This document shows, one piece after another, positions 429-46,553 of a stretch of DNA of 64,000 nucleotides. The DNA comes from Verrucomicrobiales bacterium (GTDB taxonomy: Bacteria > Verrucomicrobiota > Verrucomicrobiia > Verrucomicrobiales > V1-33). Positions within the stretch are counted from its first letter, which is position 1; each line of letters opens with the position of its first letter. Location: the NCBI GenBank assembly GCA_965229245.1, contig CBDDIW010000001.1:650372-714371 (forward strand). Reading direction: 5' to 3'. The position numbers and the translations under genes are program-made. The notes below the pieces were generated by a model. The model saw only the letters and a program-made list of their open reading frames with translations, was not told the DNA's origin and did no database searches.

Positions 429-607
429 GACGGCAGAGGGTTGAGTGGCGTTTGTTGGTATTTTCTAAAATCTATTAATTACATTCAGCACCGGACCCGC
501 CGGAGTAAACCACGGTGAAATCCATTTACAGCAAGGCGTGAATTCATTTGATACTATTTTAAAGACGCGGACAGCAACCGGGACGCGTGGTCTTATCAGG
601 TGAATCA

Positions 608-813
608 GGCCCGGAGGGCCGCCGGAAATTAGCCGGTGGCGCAAGCCACCGGAAAGCTGAATAACAAACGCTCACAGCCCCGGAGGGGCGCTGGAATGTT
701 CGTCGCCCCGCATTCCCCAAGGGTTTCCATCGCCCCTGCCGGGGCTCCGAATCACTTGACGGAAGGTTCCGGTGGCTTGCGCCACCGGCTAATTTCCATC
801 GGCCCTCCGGGCC
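608..813. repeat. 206-bp element bounded by a 47-bp near-perfect inverted repeat (45/47); each arm holds a CCGGTGGC-GCAA-GCCACCGG hairpin with a GNRA tetraloop
   Basis: Left arm 608..654 is ggcccggagggccgccggaaattagccggtggcgcaagccaccggaa. The reverse complement of right arm 767..813 is identical except gccgcc versus gccgat. The element lies in the 450-bp gap between the DUF1549/DUF1553 gene and the DUF1501 gene. Confidence 0.7.
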
Positions 814-879
814 TTGCTCGTCCCTGACCTTCTCACGGACCATATAAGTTTCCTGTATATATTACCGGCTTTCCGGTAT

Positions 880-5018: not shown

Positions 5019-5164
5019 GCCCAAGGAGCGGCGACATTCCTGTCGCCGTCGAACTCAGCCGTTTGGTCACTCCTACTCAGAGTAAGAGTAAGAGCAGGAA
5101 CACGAACAGGAGGCACCAAACAGTTGAATCCCACGGCGACAGGAATGTCGCCGCTCCTTGGGGC
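5019..5164. repeat. REPIN (REP doublet forming a hairpin), copy 1
   Basis: Terminal arms cccaaggagcggcgacattcctgtcgccgt (5020..5049) and its perfect reverse complement acggcgacaggaatgtcgccgctccttgggg (5133..5163). Each arm carries the internal palindrome GGCGACA-ttcc-TGTCGCC. Intergenic. Confidence 0.8.
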
Positions 5165-5257
5165 CTAACGGTCGGGTTCAGGCCTGCTCTGCTTTCTATG
5201 GATGCGCGACCTTATAATACCCCTCCCGAGAGACAGGAAGCACGTCGCGTTTCTCCA

Positions 5258-6314: not shown

Positions 6315-7283
6315 ATGAAATTTACTGCTCCTCCCGGTCCATGTCAACTCACGGTTAGCCCTGGCGGATTCCCCCGCCGCGGATTTCTCACCGGGCTCGC
6401 GACCGTGGCCGCGGGGCTCCGGTTCTCCCGGGCGGCGGCCCCGGCCATGGATCCCGCGGACTGGGTGTTCATCGATAACGGCGAGGTCCGCCTGGGCGTG
6501 AAGCAGTCCAGCGGCGCGGGCATCGGGTGGCTCTCGGCGTCCGGGGCCGGGGAAAATCTGCTGGATCACTTCGACCACGGGCGCTTCATCCAGCAGAGTT
6601 ACTACGGGCACACGGACGGTTCCGTGTGGGTGGACAAGCCATGGCGCTGGAATCCCGTGCAGGGCGGCGATTACAAAGGGAACGCTTCCCAGCTTCTGGA
6701 AATCACCAGCGACAAAACCACGCTCCACTCCCGCGTCCACCCGCGGAACTGGGCAGGAGGCCAATTGCTGACGGACTGCGAAATGGAACAGCACATCCGC
6801 CTGGAGGGCAAGGTGGCGATCGTGAAATTCCGGTTCCGTTATAACGGGAAAGGATCGCACCCGGAGATTCATCACGAGGTGCCCGCCACGTTCCTGAATC
6901 CCGCCCTGGGCACGCTGGTCATCTATGAAGGCGACAAGCCGTGGACGAACGGAGAGCTGAAGCGCTCCACACCCGGCTGGCCTAACGAAAGCCGCAGGAT
7001 CCCGGAATCCTGGGCCGCGTATGTGAATGACAAGGACACGGGGGTGGGCGTCTTCGTGCCCATCGCGAAGGAACTCACCTGTTACCGCTACGGAGCGAAC
7101 CCCAAAGCACCCGCCGCGTGCTCCTACTTCGCGCCCCTGGTGAAATTCGCCATCACGCCGGGGGTGGATTTCAGCTATGAAGCGGTGCTTGCGACCGGCA
7201 CGCCCGCGGAGATGCGTGCCACCTTCGCAAAGCTCAAGGATTCCCTCACCGGCAAGCTCCCGGAGACTCCCGCCGCGAAATAA
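6315..7283 (+). CDS. Tat-secreted hypothetical protein
   Basis: Twin-arginine signal (RRGFLTGLATVAAGL) followed by a soluble domain with no motif I recognise. Confidence 0.55.
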   Translation: MKFTAPPGPCQLTVSPGGFPRRGFLTGLATVAAGLRFSRAAAPAMDPADWVFIDNGEVRLGVKQSSGAGIGWLSASGAGENLLDHFDHGRFIQQSYYGHTDGSVWVDKPWRWNPVQGGDYKGNASQLLEITSDKTTLHSRVHPRNWAGGQLLTDCEMEQHIRLEGKVAIVKFRFRYNGKGSHPEIHHEVPATFLNPALGTLVIYEGDKPWTNGELKRSTPGWPNESRRIPESWAAYVNDKDTGVGVFVPIAKELTCYRYGANPKAPAACSYFAPLVKFAITPGVDFSYEAVLATGTPAEMRATFAKLKDSLTGKLPETPAAK

Positions 7284-7299: not shown

Positions 7300-8016
7300 A
7301 TGACCGTCACGCTTTTCATTCCCTGTTTTATCGATGCCCTCTACCCCCAGGCGGGGATCAGTATGGTGACCATTCTCGAAGAGCTGGGGCATACCGTGGA
7401 TTTCCCCGGGGAACTGGCCTGCTGCGGGCAGCCGCCGTTCAATTCCGGCTACTGGGACGAAGCCCGGGAGGTCGCGCGCCCGGCACTGCGGCGGCTGGAA
7501 AAGGCGGAGGCCGTGGTGATCGGCAGCGGATCCTGCGGGGCGATGCTGAAGGTGTTTTACAAGGAACTCTTCGCCGGGCAGCCGGAGGAGGCCCAGGCAA
7601 AGGCGCTGTCCGCGAAGACCTGGGAGTTCTCGGATTTCCTCGTCACCCGTCTGGGCGTCACGGACTTGGGGGCCACCTTCGAGCGCCGGGTGACGTTCCA
7701 CGATGGCTGCCACGGCCTGCGGGAACTGAAGACGAAATCCCAGCCCCGCGCGTTGCTGAAGCACGTGCGCGGTCTGGAGCTCGTGGAGATGGCGGAGGCC
7801 GAGACCTGTTGCGGCTTCGGCGGCACCTTTGCCACGAAGTATGCCGGCATCTCCACCGCCATGGGCGAGGTGAAATGCGCCAGCGCCGCGGAGACGGGCG
7901 CGGATGTCATCGTGAGCAACGACTCCAGTTGCCTCATGCACCTCCAGGGCTTGCTGGACCGCCAGGGCCGCCCCATCCGGACAATGCACCTGGCGGAAGT
8001 GCTGGCCCAGCGATAA
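7300..8016 (+). CDS. lutA: lactate utilization protein A (LutA, CCG-domain Fe-S oxidoreductase)
   Basis: Two cysteine-rich CCG motifs (ACCGQPPFNSG and CCGFGGTFATKY). Start ATG 7300, internal to the listed 7177..8016 ORF. Followed by lutB and lutC. Confidence 0.8.
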   Translation: MTVTLFIPCFIDALYPQAGISMVTILEELGHTVDFPGELACCGQPPFNSGYWDEAREVARPALRRLEKAEAVVIGSGSCGAMLKVFYKELFAGQPEEAQAKALSAKTWEFSDFLVTRLGVTDLGATFERRVTFHDGCHGLRELKTKSQPRALLKHVRGLELVEMAEAETCCGFGGTFATKYAGISTAMGEVKCASAAETGADVIVSNDSSCLMHLQGLLDRQGRPIRTMHLAEVLAQR

Positions 8017-22077: not shown

Positions 22078-22142
22078 GAAACCGGGGCGGCGGTTTTCAA
22101 TGAGGGGTGTCCGGCTAACTGATTCCAGGGTGGAGATGGAAA

Positions 22143-22269
22143 CCCAAGGAGCGGCGACATTCCTGTCGCCGTCTGGAAATCATCCGTTAGGCCCTTCGAT
22201 TTCGACAGGCCAGGCTCTTGTTCTCCATCGAAGAGCTCACGGCGATAGGAATGTCGCCGCTCCTTGGGG
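22143..22269. repeat. REPIN, copy 2
   Basis: Left arm cccaaggagcggcgacattcctgtcgccgt (22143..22172). Right arm acggcgataggaatgtcgccgctccttgggg (22239..22269) is its reverse complement with one mismatch. The copy is itself flanked by an inverted GTGTCCGGCTAAC motif. Confidence 0.8.
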
Positions 22270-22444
22270 CCTGGCCGTCCCGGAAAACGACATCGCATCG
22301 GCACGCACTACAGAAACCGGTTAGCCGGACACCAGTGATTTCAAACCGCCGCCACGGGAGTTCCCACGTTTGCGGGTCTTTCGCGCGCTTTAGGCGGCAC
22401 GGTGTGCCGGTCTCTTGTCTCACCCCCATTTCACAAATCCCCCC

Positions 22445-27965: not shown

Positions 27966-28012
27966 GCTCAGGCAATGGCATCCGGCGCCCCGCCGGATGC
28001 CATTGCCTGAGC
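27966..28012. terminator. perfect 22-bp-stem hairpin between convergent genes (putative bidirectional intrinsic terminator)
   Basis: gctcaggcaatggcatccggcg-ccc-cgccggatgccattgcctgagc. Lies between the beta-lactamase-family gene (+) and pdxA (-). No obvious U-tract, which is common in high-GC genomes. Confidence 0.45.
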
Positions 28013-30977: not shown

Positions 30978-33023
30978 ATGCTCTGGAACTTCATGTTCTG
31001 GACAGGCATCGCCATGGCCGCGCTCGTCGCGCTCTGGCTCATCATCTGGCTCGTGCTGGGCGCGCGCTACATTCCCCACCGCAGCGTGGGCATCATCGAA
31101 AAACTCTGGTCCCCCGGCGGCTCGCTCGCGGAGGGACGCATCATCGCCCTGAACGGGGAGGCGGGCTACCAGGCCCGGCTGCTGCGGGGTGGTCTGCACA
31201 TGGGCTATCCATTCTGGAAGTTCAGCGTGCACAAGGTGCCGCTGGTCACCGTGGGGGAAGGCCGCATCGGGTATGTCTATGCCCGGGACGGACGCCCGCT
31301 GCCGCCGGAGCAGACGCTGGGCAGCACCGCGGCGTGCAATTCCTTCCAGGATGCCGTGGCCTTCATCAACAATGGCGGCCAGCGGGGACGCCAGCGCGGC
31401 ATCCTGCGGGAGGGCACCTATGCCATCAATACGGCCCTCTTCGTGGTCATCACGGAGCAGGCGGTCTATGCCGGAACGCTGCCCAAAACGGAGGCGCTGC
31501 AGCTCCACGCCTGGCAGAATGAACTCAGCGCGGCGGGAGGCTTCACCCCCGTGCGCGTGGGGGCCACGGGACGGGGACCCTCCGTGCTGGTGAGACCTCC
31601 CGAGGACGAGGACCGCCCCGTGCCGGACAGCGGCCTCTCCTCCCAGGACAACATCGGCGTCATCACCGTGCATGACGGCCCCACGCTGCAGCCGGGCGAA
31701 TTCATCGCGCCCCAGGCGGGTGGCGACGAACACGGCGCGGGGCACAATTACTTCCAGGATCCGGAGCAGTTCCTGTCCCTGGGAGGCCGCCGCGGCCGCC
31801 AGCTTCAGGTGCTGACGGACGGGACGTATTTCATCAACCGCTGGTTCGCCACGGTGGAGCTGCGGCCCAAGACGCTGATCCCCATCGGCTATGTGGGCGT
31901 GGTTATCAGTTACTACGGCCAGGCCGGGGAGGACGTGACGGGCGCGCAGTTCCGCTACGGGCAGCAGGTGAGCACGGGGCACCGCGGGGTGTGGCGGGAC
32001 GCGCTGCCTCCGGGCAAATACGCGCTCAATTCCTATGCCCTCAAAGTGGAACTCGTGCCCACGGTGAACTTCGTCCTTCGCTGGATCAGCGGCCAGACGG
32101 AAAGCCACCGCTACGATGAATCCCTCGCGAGCATTCCCATCATCACGGCGGATGCCTACGAGCCCCTGCTGCCGCTCTCCCTGGTGCTGCACATCGACTA
32201 CGAAAAAGCCCCGCGCGTGGTGCAGCGCTTCGGCGATGTGCGCCGCCTCATCAGCCAGACGCTGGACCCCATCCTGACGGCTTACTTCCGGGACGTGGCG
32301 CAGTCCTCCAACATGCTGGACCTGCTCACGCACCGCGAGGATATCCAGAAGCGCGCCACGGCGGAGCTGGGCCGCCGGTTCACGGAGTATGATATCAACT
32401 GCGTGGCCGTGCTCATCGGGCGGCCGGAGTCGGACATCCGGAAGCTCACCCGCGGCGAGGACCCCATCGAAGCACTGTTCGATCAACTCCGCATGCGCCG
32501 CCTGGCGGACGAGCAGCGCGAGACGTTCGCTAAACAACAGGAGGCCGCCGTGCGCCTGAAGGAGCTGAACCACGCCCAGGCCGAGGCCGAGCGCCAGTCG
32601 CACCTCACCGCCACGAAGGTGGAGATCGAGATCTCCTCCAACCGCGGCGCGGCGCAACTCGCCGAAGCCCAGAACATGGCCAAACGCGAGGTGACGCTCG
32701 CGGAGGGCCAGAGCCGTGCCGCCCGCCTGCTGGGCGAGGGTGAAGCCGCCCGCATCGCCCAGGTGGGTGAAGCCGAGGCCCAGGTAAGCCGCCAGAAAGT
32801 GGAAGCCGTGGGCGACCCCCGCCTCTATGCCCTGAACCAGATCACCGACAAGCTGACAGAGTCGAAGCAACCGCTGGTCCCCGAGCGGCTCATCATGCTT
32901 GGCGGCGCGGAAGGTTCCAACAGCCAGGCCAGCCTCTTCCAGGCCATCATGCAGGTGCTCACCACCTGGCAGGTCATAAGGGAGGACAGCCGCGGGCCGG
33001 TGGAGGTGGACAAGGCGGCGTGA
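30978..33023 (+). CDS. flotillin / SPFH (band 7) family protein, YqiK-like
   Basis: 681 aa. N-terminal TM segment, SPFH domain and a long coiled-coil tail with EA/AEAE repeats (AEAERQSHLTATKVEIE...). AGGAGG RBS at 30962..30967. About 370-nt structured leader. Confidence 0.8.
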   Translation: MLWNFMFWTGIAMAALVALWLIIWLVLGARYIPHRSVGIIEKLWSPGGSLAEGRIIALNGEAGYQARLLRGGLHMGYPFWKFSVHKVPLVTVGEGRIGYVYARDGRPLPPEQTLGSTAACNSFQDAVAFINNGGQRGRQRGILREGTYAINTALFVVITEQAVYAGTLPKTEALQLHAWQNELSAAGGFTPVRVGATGRGPSVLVRPPEDEDRPVPDSGLSSQDNIGVITVHDGPTLQPGEFIAPQAGGDEHGAGHNYFQDPEQFLSLGGRRGRQLQVLTDGTYFINRWFATVELRPKTLIPIGYVGVVISYYGQAGEDVTGAQFRYGQQVSTGHRGVWRDALPPGKYALNSYALKVELVPTVNFVLRWISGQTESHRYDESLASIPIITADAYEPLLPLSLVLHIDYEKAPRVVQRFGDVRRLISQTLDPILTAYFRDVAQSSNMLDLLTHREDIQKRATAELGRRFTEYDINCVAVLIGRPESDIRKLTRGEDPIEALFDQLRMRRLADEQRETFAKQQEAAVRLKELNHAQAEAERQSHLTATKVEIEISSNRGAAQLAEAQNMAKREVTLAEGQSRAARLLGEGEAARIAQVGEAEAQVSRQKVEAVGDPRLYALNQITDKLTESKQPLVPERLIMLGGAEGSNSQASLFQAIMQVLTTWQVIREDSRGPVEVDKAA

Positions 33024-33093
33024 GCCAATAAAAAGAGGATGCAGGGAACGGCGGCAGAAACGCCGCCGTTCTCCTGTCCAGCCTCCGTTCGCG

Positions 33094-33228
33094 CCCAAGG
33101 AGCGGCGACATTCCTGTCGCCGTCCTCATGACGAGTCTCCGGAATGACTTCAAAGACAAGCTTCAGGGTAGTAGAGGACGACCAGTTAGAAGAACTGACG
33201 GCGACAGGAATGTCGCCGCTCCTTGGGG
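33094..33228. repeat. REPIN, copy 3 (immediately 3' of the RAYT gene)
   Basis: Arms 33094..33123 and 33198..33228 are perfect reverse complements of each other and match the consensus of copies 1 and 2. Confidence 0.8.
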
Positions 33229-33260
33229 CGCGTTATGAGGTTAATCCCGCCCCCCTCTTT

Positions 33261-33917
33261 TCAAACGGGGGGCGCCTCAAGGATTGAGCGGACTTCATCG
33301 CTCAAATAAAGAGTATAGTCCCCTTCACGCAGTCTGGCCTTTACCGGGTTTCTCCGGATGTAACGCACGCAATTCCAAAAATGGGTTTTATCCCGCACCA
33401 GCCTGTCGAAGTAATCCTTTTGCCAGAAGCCTCCATCACCTGATACCCGTGGAGATACCAGCCTGGCGGCGCGAGCGGAAGCTCCCTTCCAGGCTTTGAG
33501 CAGGGTTTCCAAACGAACGTTTTCCTGAAGGGAAAACAGCAGATGAGCATGATTCGGCATCAGGACCCAGGCGTGATGCCGGTAGCGCCCGTCATCATAT
33601 TTTATAAAAATGTTCTCCACGGCGTCCCGGACTTCCGGATGACGCAGCAGGCATTCACCATGGCAGTCGTCCAGCCAGCGTTCGAGCCTGCTGGAAAACC
33701 GCTCGTGATATTCCGCCTCCTGTGCCGCTGACCATGGTTCAGGATTCCATTTCAGCCAGAGATCACGTTCCCCATGCCACTGGGCGATGAGCGCGTGAGG
33801 GAGGGAGTCCGCGAGACGGAATGTGAGGAAATAGGTGGCTCCCGGCTGATCCCAGTGGGTAAGGCGATTAGTCCCTACAAGAGTGTCGGTCCATGGATTG
33901 AAGTATTTCAGGTCCAT
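33261..33917 (-). mobile_element. REP-associated tyrosine transposase (RAYT; IS200-like Y1 HUH transposase)
   Basis: 218 aa. HUH motif MPNHAHLLF and catalytic Tyr region YIRRNP. The gene is flanked on both sides by REP sequences of the same family found elsewhere in the window. Confidence 0.75.
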
Positions 33918-33969
33918 TTCGACGGGCTCATACCGCTGAGGAGGAGGCTGGAGAGGACCTGAACGGAGG

Positions 33970-33999
33970 ACGGCGACAGGAATGTCGCCGCTCCTTGGG
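33970..33999. repeat. solo REP (single arm) 5' of the RAYT gene
   Basis: acggcgacaggaatgtcgccgctccttggg, identical to the REPIN right arm, followed by tandem cgttatg(a/t)gg units that also follow REPIN copy 3. Confidence 0.75.
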
Positions 34000-34018
34000 C
34001 TCGTTATGTTGAGGCTCG

Positions 34019-35680
34019 TTATGAGGCAAAATACCCCGCCATTTCCGGACCGAAGTGTTCCATGGCGTTCTTGATGGGCAGGGGCACGCCGCCGCCCAGG
34101 GCGCAGAGGGAGGTCTGCTCCATGGTATCGAGGAGGTCGTTCATCAGGGTCCGGTCCATCTTATAGGAACTATCCGTCCGGGCTTTGATGATCATTTCCT
34201 TCCCCCGGGTGCTGCCGAGGCGGCAGGGGAAACATTTACCGCAACTCTCGTCGGCGGTGAATTTGAAAAGGTGTTCGATGTATTCGATCATCGGGAACGC
34301 CGCCGGGATGCTCACCACACCCGCGTGGCCCAGGAGGAAGCCGGCTTTTTTGAAGCTCTCAAAGTCCACCGTCAGCGCCTCGATATGGCTCAGCGGCACG
34401 ATGCCCCCCAGGGGGCCGCCCACCTGAATGGCTTTGATCTCCGTCCGCCAGCCGCCCGCGAGGTCGATGACCGTGCGCAACGGCGTGCCCATGGCCACCT
34501 CATAGATGCCCGGCTTCACAAAATGGCTGTCCAGCGAGAGCAGCTTTGGCCCGCTGCTTTGGGGCGTGCCGATGGTGGCGTAGCCTTTCCCGCCCAGGGT
34601 GAGGATGGCGCGCAGATTCGCGAAGGTTTCCACATTGTTCACGATGGTGGGCCGCCGGAAAAGCCCCTCCACGGTGGGGAATGGAGGACGCACCCGCACC
34701 TCCGGGCGCTGCCCTTCGATACTGGCGAGAAGCGCGGTTTCCTCCCCGCAGATATAAGCTCCCGCGCCTTTGATGGTCTTCAGGTGGAAGTCGAAGCCGC
34801 TGCCCAGGATGTTTTTCCCCAGGAGCCCGGCGGCGTGGAGATCCGCGATGGCCGCGTCGATGATCTTCACGGAATCCGGATACTCCGCCCGGATGTAGAG
34901 CACGCCCGTGCCCGCGCCCGCGAACCAGCCCGCCACCATCATGCCCAGGAGCACGCTGTGGGGACGCTCCTCCATGAGATACTTATCGATGTAAGCCCCG
35001 GGATCGCCTTCGTCCGCGTTGCAGACGATGTATTTCACCGCGCCCTCCGCCTCGCGGCAGGACTGCCATTTGAAGTGCAGCGGGAAGCCCGCGCCGCCCC
35101 GGCCGCGCAGTCCGCTGTCCTTCAGTTCCCCCTGGAGCCAGTTCCGGTCCTTCCCCAGGAGTTCGCGGAAGGGAGCGTAATATTCGTCCACTCCCGGAAA
35201 GGGAGCCGTGAGCAGGGCGGGCTGGAGATGGGAGACCACGGCATAGCGGTCCGTTCCATCCCCCTGCCCCGTGGCGAACAGCGCCTCCAGGGCCTCCGGC
35301 TTCTGCCCGGAGTAGTTTTGCCCCTGGTATTGGAAAGCCCCGCCCTCATGGCACCGGCCCAGGCAGCAGATATGGCCGATCTCTTCGCCCGCGAAATGTC
35401 CCTCCATGCGTTCATGCAGGTGGTCTTGGGTACCCGCCACGAGGCAGGCGGAGCCATTGCAGACGAAGACCTTCTTGCCCTCGTTCTCCTTCTTCAGAAA
35501 ATCGTAAAACGACACCGCCCCCAGCGTGACCGCGTCGCCGAAAAGGGTTTCCTCCCCCATCTTTTCCACGATCGCCGGGTTTTCCGCCGTTCCGGTCGCC
35601 TCCGCCGCGCGCACCATGCGTTCGAAGACATTGCGGTCGGTGCCTTTGCGGAAGGAGAGGGAGCTGAGATTTCTGGACAT
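34019..35680 (-). CDS. NuoF-like NADH:acceptor oxidoreductase flavoprotein fused to an N-terminal NuoE-like thioredoxin-fold [2Fe-2S] domain
   Basis: 553 aa from ATG 35680. N-terminal cysteines (CNGSAC ... CCLGRC), FMN/NADH-binding GRGGAGFP motif, SLBB domain, and C-terminal 4Fe-4S motif ESCGKCFPCR. No neighbouring nuo or hydrogenase genes are present. Confidence 0.8.
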   Translation of the reverse strand: MSRNLSSLSFRKGTDRNVFERMVRAAEATGTAENPAIVEKMGEETLFGDAVTLGAVSFYDFLKKENEGKKVFVCNGSACLVAGTQDHLHERMEGHFAGEEIGHICCLGRCHEGGAFQYQGQNYSGQKPEALEALFATGQGDGTDRYAVVSHLQPALLTAPFPGVDEYYAPFRELLGKDRNWLQGELKDSGLRGRGGAGFPLHFKWQSCREAEGAVKYIVCNADEGDPGAYIDKYLMEERPHSVLLGMMVAGWFAGAGTGVLYIRAEYPDSVKIIDAAIADLHAAGLLGKNILGSGFDFHLKTIKGAGAYICGEETALLASIEGQRPEVRVRPPFPTVEGLFRRPTIVNNVETFANLRAILTLGGKGYATIGTPQSSGPKLLSLDSHFVKPGIYEVAMGTPLRTVIDLAGGWRTEIKAIQVGGPLGGIVPLSHIEALTVDFESFKKAGFLLGHAGVVSIPAAFPMIEYIEHLFKFTADESCGKCFPCRLGSTRGKEMIIKARTDSSYKMDRTLMNDLLDTMEQTSLCALGGGVPLPIKNAMEHFGPEMAGYFAS

Positions 35681-46499: not shown

Positions 46500-46530
46500 G
46501 TCCTGTTAGGCAGCCAGTGCCCTCCGGCAG

Positions 46531-46553
46531 GGCGGCGACCTTCCCGTCGCCGT
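46531..46553. repeat. degenerate REP-like copy
   Basis: gcggcgaccttcccgtcgccgt versus the family consensus gcggcgacattcctgtcgccgt (2 mismatches). Retains the GGCGAC...GTCGCC palindrome. Confidence 0.4.

Follow-up and report, generated by a model that had tools for sequence, protein, structure and literature searches.

The stretch of DNA analysed here, 64,000 nucleotides long and called the window in the following, comes from a Verrucomicrobiales bacterium (GenBank assembly GCA_965229245.1, contig CBDDIW010000001.1, positions 650,372 to 714,371 of the forward strand). At 33261..33917 on the minus strand it carries an open reading frame (ORF) of 218 aa for a Y1 HUH transposase, with the HUH motif at H123/H125 and the catalytic tyrosine Y186. 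The neighbours of the gene are an SPFH/Band_7 gene on the one side and a NuoF-like gene on the other, and copies of a short hairpin repeat flank it at both ends. We think that this locus is very probably a REP-RAYT system of a Verrucomicrobiaceae chromosome, consisting of a REP-associated tyrosine transposase (RAYT), the repetitive extragenic palindromic (REP) sequences themselves and their inverted doublets, the REPINs. The system is ordinary in kind; its one unusual point is the very wide occurrence of a verbatim REP core, and the GGAG-tagged clade to which it belongs adds a modest interest. To our knowledge, almost all studies of REP-RAYT systems concern Proteobacteria. Work by Nunvar 2010 and Ton-Hoang 2012 is reportedly also concerned with systems of this kind. 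They are treated by Bertels & Rainey 2011 (PMC3116915) and Messing 2012 (PMC3479197), and full-text literature searches gave no REP-RAYT paper on Verrucomicrobiota besides the one of Di Nocera et al. 2013 (PMC3733652).

The RAYT ORF is an intact Y1 HUH transposase gene, in which the catalytic fold and motifs are complete. Pfam Y1_Tnp matches the protein at 1.1e-8, and in an alignment of 36 homologues, which are 49-68% identical, the residues H123 and H125, which make up the HUH motif within MPNHxH, and Y186, within RYIRRNP, do not vary. The NCBIfam equivalog model NF047646 (REP_Tyr_transpos) gives 82.8 bits and is thus narrowly passed at a cutoff of 80, whereas the IS200 model NF033573 gives 23.7 bits and fails its cutoff of 55. 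When the profile of the 36-homologue alignment was compared with the PDB, the best solved relative was the E. coli TnpA_REP 4ER8 (E = 6e-6), ahead of the ISDra2 and IS200 transposases. The AlphaFold (AF2) model of the protein reaches a predicted local distance difference test (pLDDT) value of 91.2 and a predicted template modelling score (pTM) of 0.85; its top Foldseek match is 4er8_A, a RAYT with REP hairpin bound, and IS200-family structures are also among the top folds. Compared with the 165-aa E. coli enzyme, the model predicts additional helices that follow the first strand and precede the HUH strands (residues ~41-104). Judged by the model scores and by 4ER8 as the best PDB sequence match, the protein appears to side with the RAYT clade and not with IS200 TnpA, and the pipelines of the Joint Genome Institute (JGI) label its homologues 'REP element-mobilizing transposase RayT'. 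A tblastn search found a single RAYT copy within the 64-kb window, for which the single-copy state that the original prediction (see below) wished to see checked therefore holds, and the annotated genes next to it include no tnpB. An earlier note on this DNA, here called the original prediction, had placed a HUH/Tyr transposase at 33261..33917 and had left it to be checked whether it is a RAYT or an IS200 TnpA accompanied by a TnpB; the gene is where it was placed, its 218-aa product matches Y1_Tnp and REP_Tyr_transpos, and the check comes out on the side of the RAYT.

Seen in one orientation, the REP consists of the tag (C)CAAGGAG, an 8-bp stem CGGCGACA, the loop TTCC and the return stem TGTCGCCG; written as a 24-mer it is GGAGCGGCGACATTCCTGTCGCCG. 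The tetranucleotide at the position of the classical GTAG is GGAG, which we read as a tag variant, so that the repeat would be related to the classical GTAG REPs but tagged with GGAG. As the copies in the window read GCCGTC after the stem, the CGTC-tagged class of Di Nocera was also considered, and it was rejected because the bases after GCCG vary elsewhere (GAC, GTG, GAA, GTT, GTA) and the 5' GGAG is kept. The 29-mer CCAAGGAGCGGCGACATTCCTGTCGCCGT matches seven times in the window if one mismatch is allowed, compared with 0.00 in 100 dinucleotide shuffles. The original prediction had named a lack of enrichment as its refutation, and within the window this strong enrichment speaks in its favour. 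Six of these are identical, and the one at 22239-22267 (-) has one mismatch. All seven are intergenic, four of them far from the RAYT gene, and they are laid out as three inverted doublets (5021/5133, 22144/22239 and 33095/33198) and a solo copy at 33970.

The third doublet lies between the convergent ends of the SPFH/Band_7 gene and the RAYT gene. It consists of REP 'a' (33095..33123, plus strand; tag CAAGGAG, followed by stem, TTCC loop and return stem as given above) and REP 'b' (33198..33226, minus strand), both without mismatch, inverted to each other with 74 nt between the two 29-mers. REP 'b' is on the RAYT coding strand just 3' of the stop codon and forms the REPIN-like partner of 'a', which in turn forms the left, outer half of the inverted pair around the gene. 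The other member, REP 'c' (33970..33998, minus strand, again 0 mismatches), is a solo copy between the NuoF-like stop codon and the RAYT start, 52 nt 5' of the latter, in direct orientation to 'b' and inverted to 'a'. Around 'a' and 'c' there is a 38-nt inverted repeat with 97% complementarity (33090-33127 and 33966-34003), which brackets the RAYT gene. A REPIN 3' of the gene and a solo REP 5' of it had been predicted, and both were recovered; the consensus said to be common to them is indeed shared by all three REPs, and only its given length of 30 nt needs correction, as it is 29 nt as written.

Of the doublets distant from the gene, doublet 1 (5021..5049, plus, and 5133..5161, minus) has 55-nt arms of 87% complementarity and lies between an ECF (extracytoplasmic function) sigma-like gene and the next gene, both on the minus strand, and doublet 2 (22144..22172, plus, and 22239..22267, minus) is found in the intergenic region 3' of an HhH-GPD repair gene. 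As single-stranded DNA all three doublets fold into long hairpins with -49 to -55 kcal/mol and z near -11; for the doublet 33095/33198 this is one long hairpin of -53 kcal/mol (z = -10.9). A candidate for a decayed eighth REP, AGGGCGGCGACCTTCCCGTCGCCG, was noticed in an intergenic gap at 46529..46552 (plus strand); with four mismatches it is weak and may be a chance match. Doublet 2 is centred in a larger imperfect palindrome (22082-22124 and 22315-22357, with arms of 43 nt that are 81% complementary), which gives the impression that it was inserted into a separate palindromic element. That this palindrome is a weak copy of the Acido-Lenti-1 element described below was considered and rejected, as Rfam gave no match there up to E = 1. 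The 11-mer CCGTTAGGCCC has only two sites in the window: at 5171 (-) it adjoins the tag of the REP at 5133 (-), and at 22184 (+) it lies within the doublet 2 spacer, where no REP adjoins it; it may belong to an older repeat or mark a context that is preferred for insertion.

The bracketing REPs have conspicuous flanks. On its 5' side REP 'b' is extended by CCTCATAACGCGCC (33227..33241, read on the minus strand), which is common to REP 'c', and the 5' extension of 'c' (33999..34027, minus strand) consists of two tandem units, CCTCATAACGAGC and CTCAACATAACGAGC. The first of these units contains the final two codons and the stop of the NuoF-like gene (GCC TCA TAA), and the C-terminus ...GYFAS that results agrees with that of the homologues. 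The directly oriented REPs 'b' and 'c' thus have 14 nt in common on the tag side, CCTCATAACG[CA]GCC, which is tandemly doubled in 'c', and the gene is therefore bounded not only by the inverted pair 'a'/'c' but also by a direct repeat of ~44 nt (REP plus 14 nt of flank). The original prediction had placed tandem cgttatg(a/t)gg units outside both flanking REPs. Such units do adjoin REPs, on the tag (5') side of the copies at 33198 and 33970, but they do not lie outside both: one is at 33230-33240, between REP 'b' and the RAYT stop, and two are at 34003-34027, overlapping the NuoF-like stop. The flanks of 'a' and 'c' (33079-33136 and 33957-34027) look exchanged. CCTCCGTTC has just two sites in the window, one 5' of 'a', the other 3' of 'c'; CTCAT[AG]ACG has just three, 3' of 'a', 5' of 'b' and 5' of 'c'; and the longer form CTCATRACGAG is found only 3' of 'a' and 5' of 'c'. 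An inversion of the segment from 'a' to 'c' would leave every REP with identical short direct repeats to its left and right. The exchanged flanks, together with the 44-nt direct repeat that includes the neighbour's stop codon, are a hint of a past REP-REP exchange that may have inverted or inserted the RAYT cassette; a target-site duplication plus inversion was also considered, as a speculative source of the swapped flanks.

How the repeat behaves next to related transposases was followed at 90 homologous RAYT loci, which came from metagenomes and from exact protein look-up and were scanned over 450 nt around the homologue. Hairpins were counted if they had a perfect stem of at least 7 bp, a 4-nt loop and a G[GT]A[GA] tag spanning -12 to -9, counted from the loop. 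This gave 79 elements at 26 of the 90 loci, compared with 0.14 per shuffle set, and GGAG was by far the most frequent tetranucleotide at -12 to -9. Among 52 distinct REP variants there are 36 different stems, with three to four Watson-Crick pair types at each stem position, and pyrimidine-rich loops, of which TTCC and TTCT are the most frequent. As these 52 variants were chosen for perfect stems, it would be circular to take the stem pairing as proof, and the evidence consists of the stem diversity and the excess over the shuffles. The series has the same tag and geometry throughout, with 36 stems swapped by compensatory changes, and could be used to test the hairpin reading.

The REP sequence follows the relatedness of the RAYTs. 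At the loci L186 and L048, whose RAYTs are 65-67% identical to that of the window, the REP 24-mer is identical to the one described here, and a RAYT with 68% identity (locus L194) has the same stem with the tag GGGG and the loop TTCT. At 53-57% identity the tag is kept and the stems are other ones, fully compensated: GGAA-GGGCGGAT..ATCCGCCC, GGAG-GGGCGACG.GCCT.CGTCGCCC, GGAG-CGGCGATT.GGT.AATCGCCG, GGAG-TGGGGGCA.TTCC.TGCCCCCA (Roseimicrobium sp. ORNL1), GGAG-ATGGGGCG.CCCC.CGCCCCAT and AAGGAG-GGGCGGCG.TCC.CGCCGCCC (Chthoniobacteraceae ASF_13). Homologues at 36-41% identity have GTAG or GTAA tags, and the GGAG clade therefore passes gradually into the GTAG type of the classical REPs. On these sequences, the repeat co-varies with the RAYT protein across the homologues. 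The arrangement is also repeated, as L186 and L048 have one REPIN on each side of the RAYT in direct orientation; compared with these, the downstream REPIN of the window is complete and the upstream one is represented by its outer REP only. In L048 the two REPINs are alike throughout, and conservation of the whole doublet was found in both of these relatives.

Further observations concern REPs of these homologues. The RAYT homologue P0045 contains a REP doublet in frame within its own ORF (locus L191, 10544-10612), and the same is true for P0031; the doublets translate as ..EGRHSCRP.. and ..GRQECRP.., and the gene call is full length nonetheless. In Chthoniobacteraceae ASF_13 (JBEBGD010000050.1) the RAYT P0092, 53% identical, has its own flanking REPs at 6680-6913 and 7547-7700 of locus L195, and a REP of the window type is found elsewhere in the same genome (L029), so that at least two REP families occur in one genome.

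For the distribution of the repeat, the exact 23-mer core GGAGCGGCGACATTCCTGTCGCC was searched on both strands in 596 Gb of sequence with one genome per species, where ~0.02 chance matches are expected at uniform composition. It was found in at least 105 blocks from at least 45 assemblies (species-level genomes) of several Verrucomicrobiota orders and a Kiritimatiellota genome. The assembly labels comprise Chthoniobacterales / Spartobacteria; Verrucomicrobiales, Verrucomicrobiaceae, Akkermansiaceae and Luteolibacter; Limisphaerales; Methylacidiphilum; Tichowtungia (Kiritimatiellota); and one metagenome-assembled genome (MAG) labelled 'Aminicenantes'. Assemblies with several blocks have at least 9, 7, 6, 6 and 5 of them. 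The 105 matches listed include no block from the same species, and only the RAYT and one HhH-GPD gene align, at about 70% nucleotide identity. Beyond the repeat itself, the only nucleotide similarity of these genomes to the window is in one gene at 69% identity. As to the host of the window, the best named relatives of the NuoF-like protein are from Verrucomicrobiaceae MAGs (83-84%) and Prosthecobacter (79-80%), and PSCyt2/PSD1 genes in the window fit the PVC (Planctomycetes-Verrucomicrobia-Chlamydiae) group. A RAYT homologue is present in only one of the 105 foreign REP blocks, and 104 are without one, among the matches listed. Many RAYT homologues are found on contigs of ~1 kb, likely as a consequence of assemblies breaking at the flanking repeats; such breaks would explain why RAYTs are left unpaired with the REPs of most MAGs, and in MAGs with plenty of REPs the RAYT genes will frequently be absent.

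When the window and the at least 105 foreign blocks were pooled and three mismatches were allowed, at least 177 REP copies were obtained, of which 123 (of 177) have a neighbour within 300 nt, among the matches listed. The 63 neighbouring pairs listed consist of 59 in '+-' orientation (tags outward), 3 in '++' and 1 in '-+', with start-to-start spacings of mostly 89-158 nt. The doublet is thus the predominant form, and tags-outward pairing is the REPIN arrangement, in agreement with the original prediction, which had proposed the doublet spacing as a check. The interiors of the REPINs are lineage-specific, with a second small hairpin that reads GCGCCGGAGGCGC, GGCCCTGAAAGGGCC or GCGCGAAGCGC depending on the lineage, none of which is found in the window. 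A separate observation is an array in a Methylacidiphilum sp. MAG (DYDC01000147.1; locus L024, 5867-6116), in which three copies of the same REP follow each other in direct orientation with an exact 113-nt period; it is a tandem array and not an inverted doublet.

The occurrence of a verbatim REP core across orders bears on the age of the REPIN-RAYT partnership and on its horizontal movement. It is a tentative proposition, which we regard as possible rather than probable, that GGAG-CGGCGACA-TTCC-TGTCGCCG is one REP lineage that was kept verbatim across Verrucomicrobiota orders and into Kiritimatiellota, in at least 45 species-level genomes, many of them with several copies, and with REPIN interiors specific to each lineage. 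The wide sharing of the core could come from vertical inheritance of the REP-RAYT partnership since before these lineages split, which, if true, would make it far older than the ~100-150 Myr documented for Enterobacteria and Pseudomonas. It could also come from one RAYT-REP pair that spread horizontally across the phylum, which, if true, would be contrary to the picture of REPINs as 'vertically inherited only'.

For the function of the system we infer binding, cleavage and current activity of the RAYT by analogy. The RAYT would be a domesticated relative of the IS200/IS605 TnpA that, as the E. coli TnpA_REP does, binds the REP when it is folded into a hairpin of single-stranded DNA. The enzyme would recognize the stem of 8 bp by its shape but the GGAG tag on the 5' side, and probably the pyrimidine loop, by their sequence, and it would cut and rejoin the DNA beside the hairpin via a covalent tyrosine link. 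The mobile unit is likely the inverted doublet with tags outward, the REPIN, which would be copied into intergenic DNA; the transposase gene would not be copied along with it and would stay at one place between REPs, a seat that is much like the seat of the homologues between two REPINs.

As alternative to a REP-RAYT system, the locus might be an autonomous insertion sequence of the IS200/IS605 type, in which the REPs are the left- and right-end hairpins and the 0.9-kb segment transposes whole. The fold and the catalytic motifs are those of IS200/IS605 TnpA, a 38-nt inverted repeat brackets the gene, the 44-nt direct repeat bounds it as if a cassette had been inserted or duplicated, and the genomic neighbourhood of the RAYT gene varies among the homologues. 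However, the score for the IS200 model is far under its cutoff and the RAYT model passes, no tnpB adjoins, there is one gene copy in 64 kb, and the two ends have the same sequence and are not distinct left-end and right-end hairpins. As, in addition, hairpins without the gene occur at four further places of the window and in 104 of the 105 foreign blocks listed, we think that an insertion sequence is very unlikely to be realized here. Another view takes the REPs as elements that now mainly serve the host, as transcript-end hairpins, terminators or protein-binding sites, with the RAYT as a non-mobilizing relic. Their identity would then be kept by host selection or gene conversion; the copies are intergenic and mostly 3' of genes or between convergent genes, REP 'b' fits a terminator-like pattern, and the lasting of the exact core in very distant genomes suggests constraint. 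Roles of REPs in mRNA stability and termination have been published (PMC3733652 and PMC3479197). Against this stand the full-length RAYT ORF with all of its catalytic residues intact, the stems that co-vary with RAYT divergence, as would be expected if the protein reads them, and the identity of six of the seven 29-mers, which fits recent copying, so that we hold this view to be unlikely; a host role and mobilization by the RAYT are in any case not mutually exclusive. The repeat could finally be an RNA-level element, a small RNA (sRNA) or a regulatory hairpin, that is next to the RAYT by coincidence, since the hairpin is stable, many copies would be transcribed at gene 3' ends and another palindromic doublet of the window is filed in Rfam as sRNA. 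This we consider hardly credible, as no Rfam family covers the window REPs at gathering thresholds, the copies stand in either orientation and form inverted doublets, and the same design flanks the RAYT homologues at 26 of 90 loci compared with about none by chance.

The REP-RAYT system is therefore the explanation that we prefer, and several observations weigh against it. The tag is GGAG rather than the GTAG that defines REPs, and the protein is barely above the NCBIfam RAYT cutoff (82.8 vs 80), with its residues 1-100 outside every RAYT or IS200 model match. The three doublets of the window have unrelated spacers, which means that the REP alone is kept and not the whole REPIN, although three doublets are a small basis for generalising. 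In a relative that matches the NuoF-like protein at 86% identity, no REP was seen over 17.6 kb and the RAYT is missing at that site, and the distribution is therefore patchy. The site 3' of the NuoF-like gene in the closest relative that was compared was considered as an 'empty site' and is uninformative, as synteny is broken and a superoxide dismutase gene follows.

Apart from the REPs, the window contains further structured elements. Two inverted copies of the Acido-Lenti-1 RNA (RF01687) were found at 607-652 (minus strand) and 769-814 (plus strand) with 46.6 and 45.6 bits at a gathering score of 37; they form a palindrome with 48-nt arms, 96% complementary, and 112 nt between the arms. This doublet layout resembles a REPIN-like DNA repeat more closely than an sRNA gene. 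A c-di-AMP riboswitch (RF00379; 30649-30831, plus strand, 44.7 bits, gathering score 38) stands directly 5' of the SPFH/Band_7 gene, which encodes 681 aa at 30978-33023. At 27966-28012 there is a perfect palindrome of 47 nt, with the 22-bp stem GCTCAGGCAATGGCATCCGGCG and a 3-nt loop, located between plus-strand ORFs or at the start of one.

Among the known systems, the IS200/IS605 elements IS608 and ISDra2 have the same catalytic fold as the RAYT of the window and a chemistry of single-strand hairpin recognition, in which a motif 5' of the hairpin is probably involved, as it may be here. The window system differs in that there is no TnpB, the gene is not multiplied with the ends, the ends are identical and the IS200 score is under the cutoff. 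What the original prediction had described as the arrangement of REP-associated tyrosine transposases is supported by the inverted flanking REPs, by copies without gene that are dispersed over the window and by a protein of the RAYT class. The RAYTs that are flanked by abundant 16-mers are those of Groups 2 and 3 (Bertels 2017, PMC5581495), to which the two systems that follow belong. In the REPIN-RAYT system of Pseudomonas fluorescens (Group 3; Bertels & Rainey 2011), as in the window, inverted doublets are the apparent replicating unit and the RAYT is flanked by doublets, and more than one REP/RAYT system per genome is possible, as in Chthoniobacteraceae ASF_13; in contrast, the window doublets share the REP arms only and not the spacer.

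The E. coli TnpA_REP (Group 2, Bertels et al. 2017; REP and bacterial interspersed mosaic elements (BIME); 4ER8) heads the PDB matches in sequence as well as in fold. Both enzymes have the Y1 HUH fold with the tyrosine in a YIxxNP helix, both genes are bracketed by inverted REPs made of a 5' tetranucleotide tag and a short hairpin, and in both cases the repeats are scattered over intergenic regions, where many form inverted pairs. The two are nevertheless only ~16% identical over the fold alignment, and the RAYT of the window is predicted to have ~65 extra residues as added helices (41-104). The E. coli REP is bulged and has the GTAG tag, whereas the window REP has a perfect 8-bp stem, a 4-nt loop and GGAG, and the hosts are Enterobacteria in the one case and Verrucomicrobiota in the other. 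The present system extends the taxonomic reach of these elements by a well-populated Verrucomicrobiota RAYT clade with a GGAG tag and an enlarged N-terminal half.

The repeat itself resembles the GTAG-tagged REP superfamily, which, according to Di Nocera et al. 2013 (PMC3733652), includes GTAG-type REPs of the verrucomicrobium Opitutus terrae, with degenerate tags, dimers and intragenic REPs. The degenerate tags given there are GYAG, GYRG, GTRG and GTMG, with GTGG in O. terrae, and the string GGAG is absent from the article. Some of the REP families are also described there as occurring in evolutionarily distant microorganisms; the exact core of the present repeat is shared by at least 45 assemblies whose labels belong to several orders and two phyla. 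The geometry of a tag, a 6-9 bp stem and a short loop is the same as in the window, dimers are frequent, and the repeats lie mainly 3' of genes, as here. REPs within ORFs are likewise reported there, to which the RAYT homologues P0031 and P0045 correspond here, and the remoter RAYT homologues of the window carry the GTAG or GTAA tag of that superfamily themselves.

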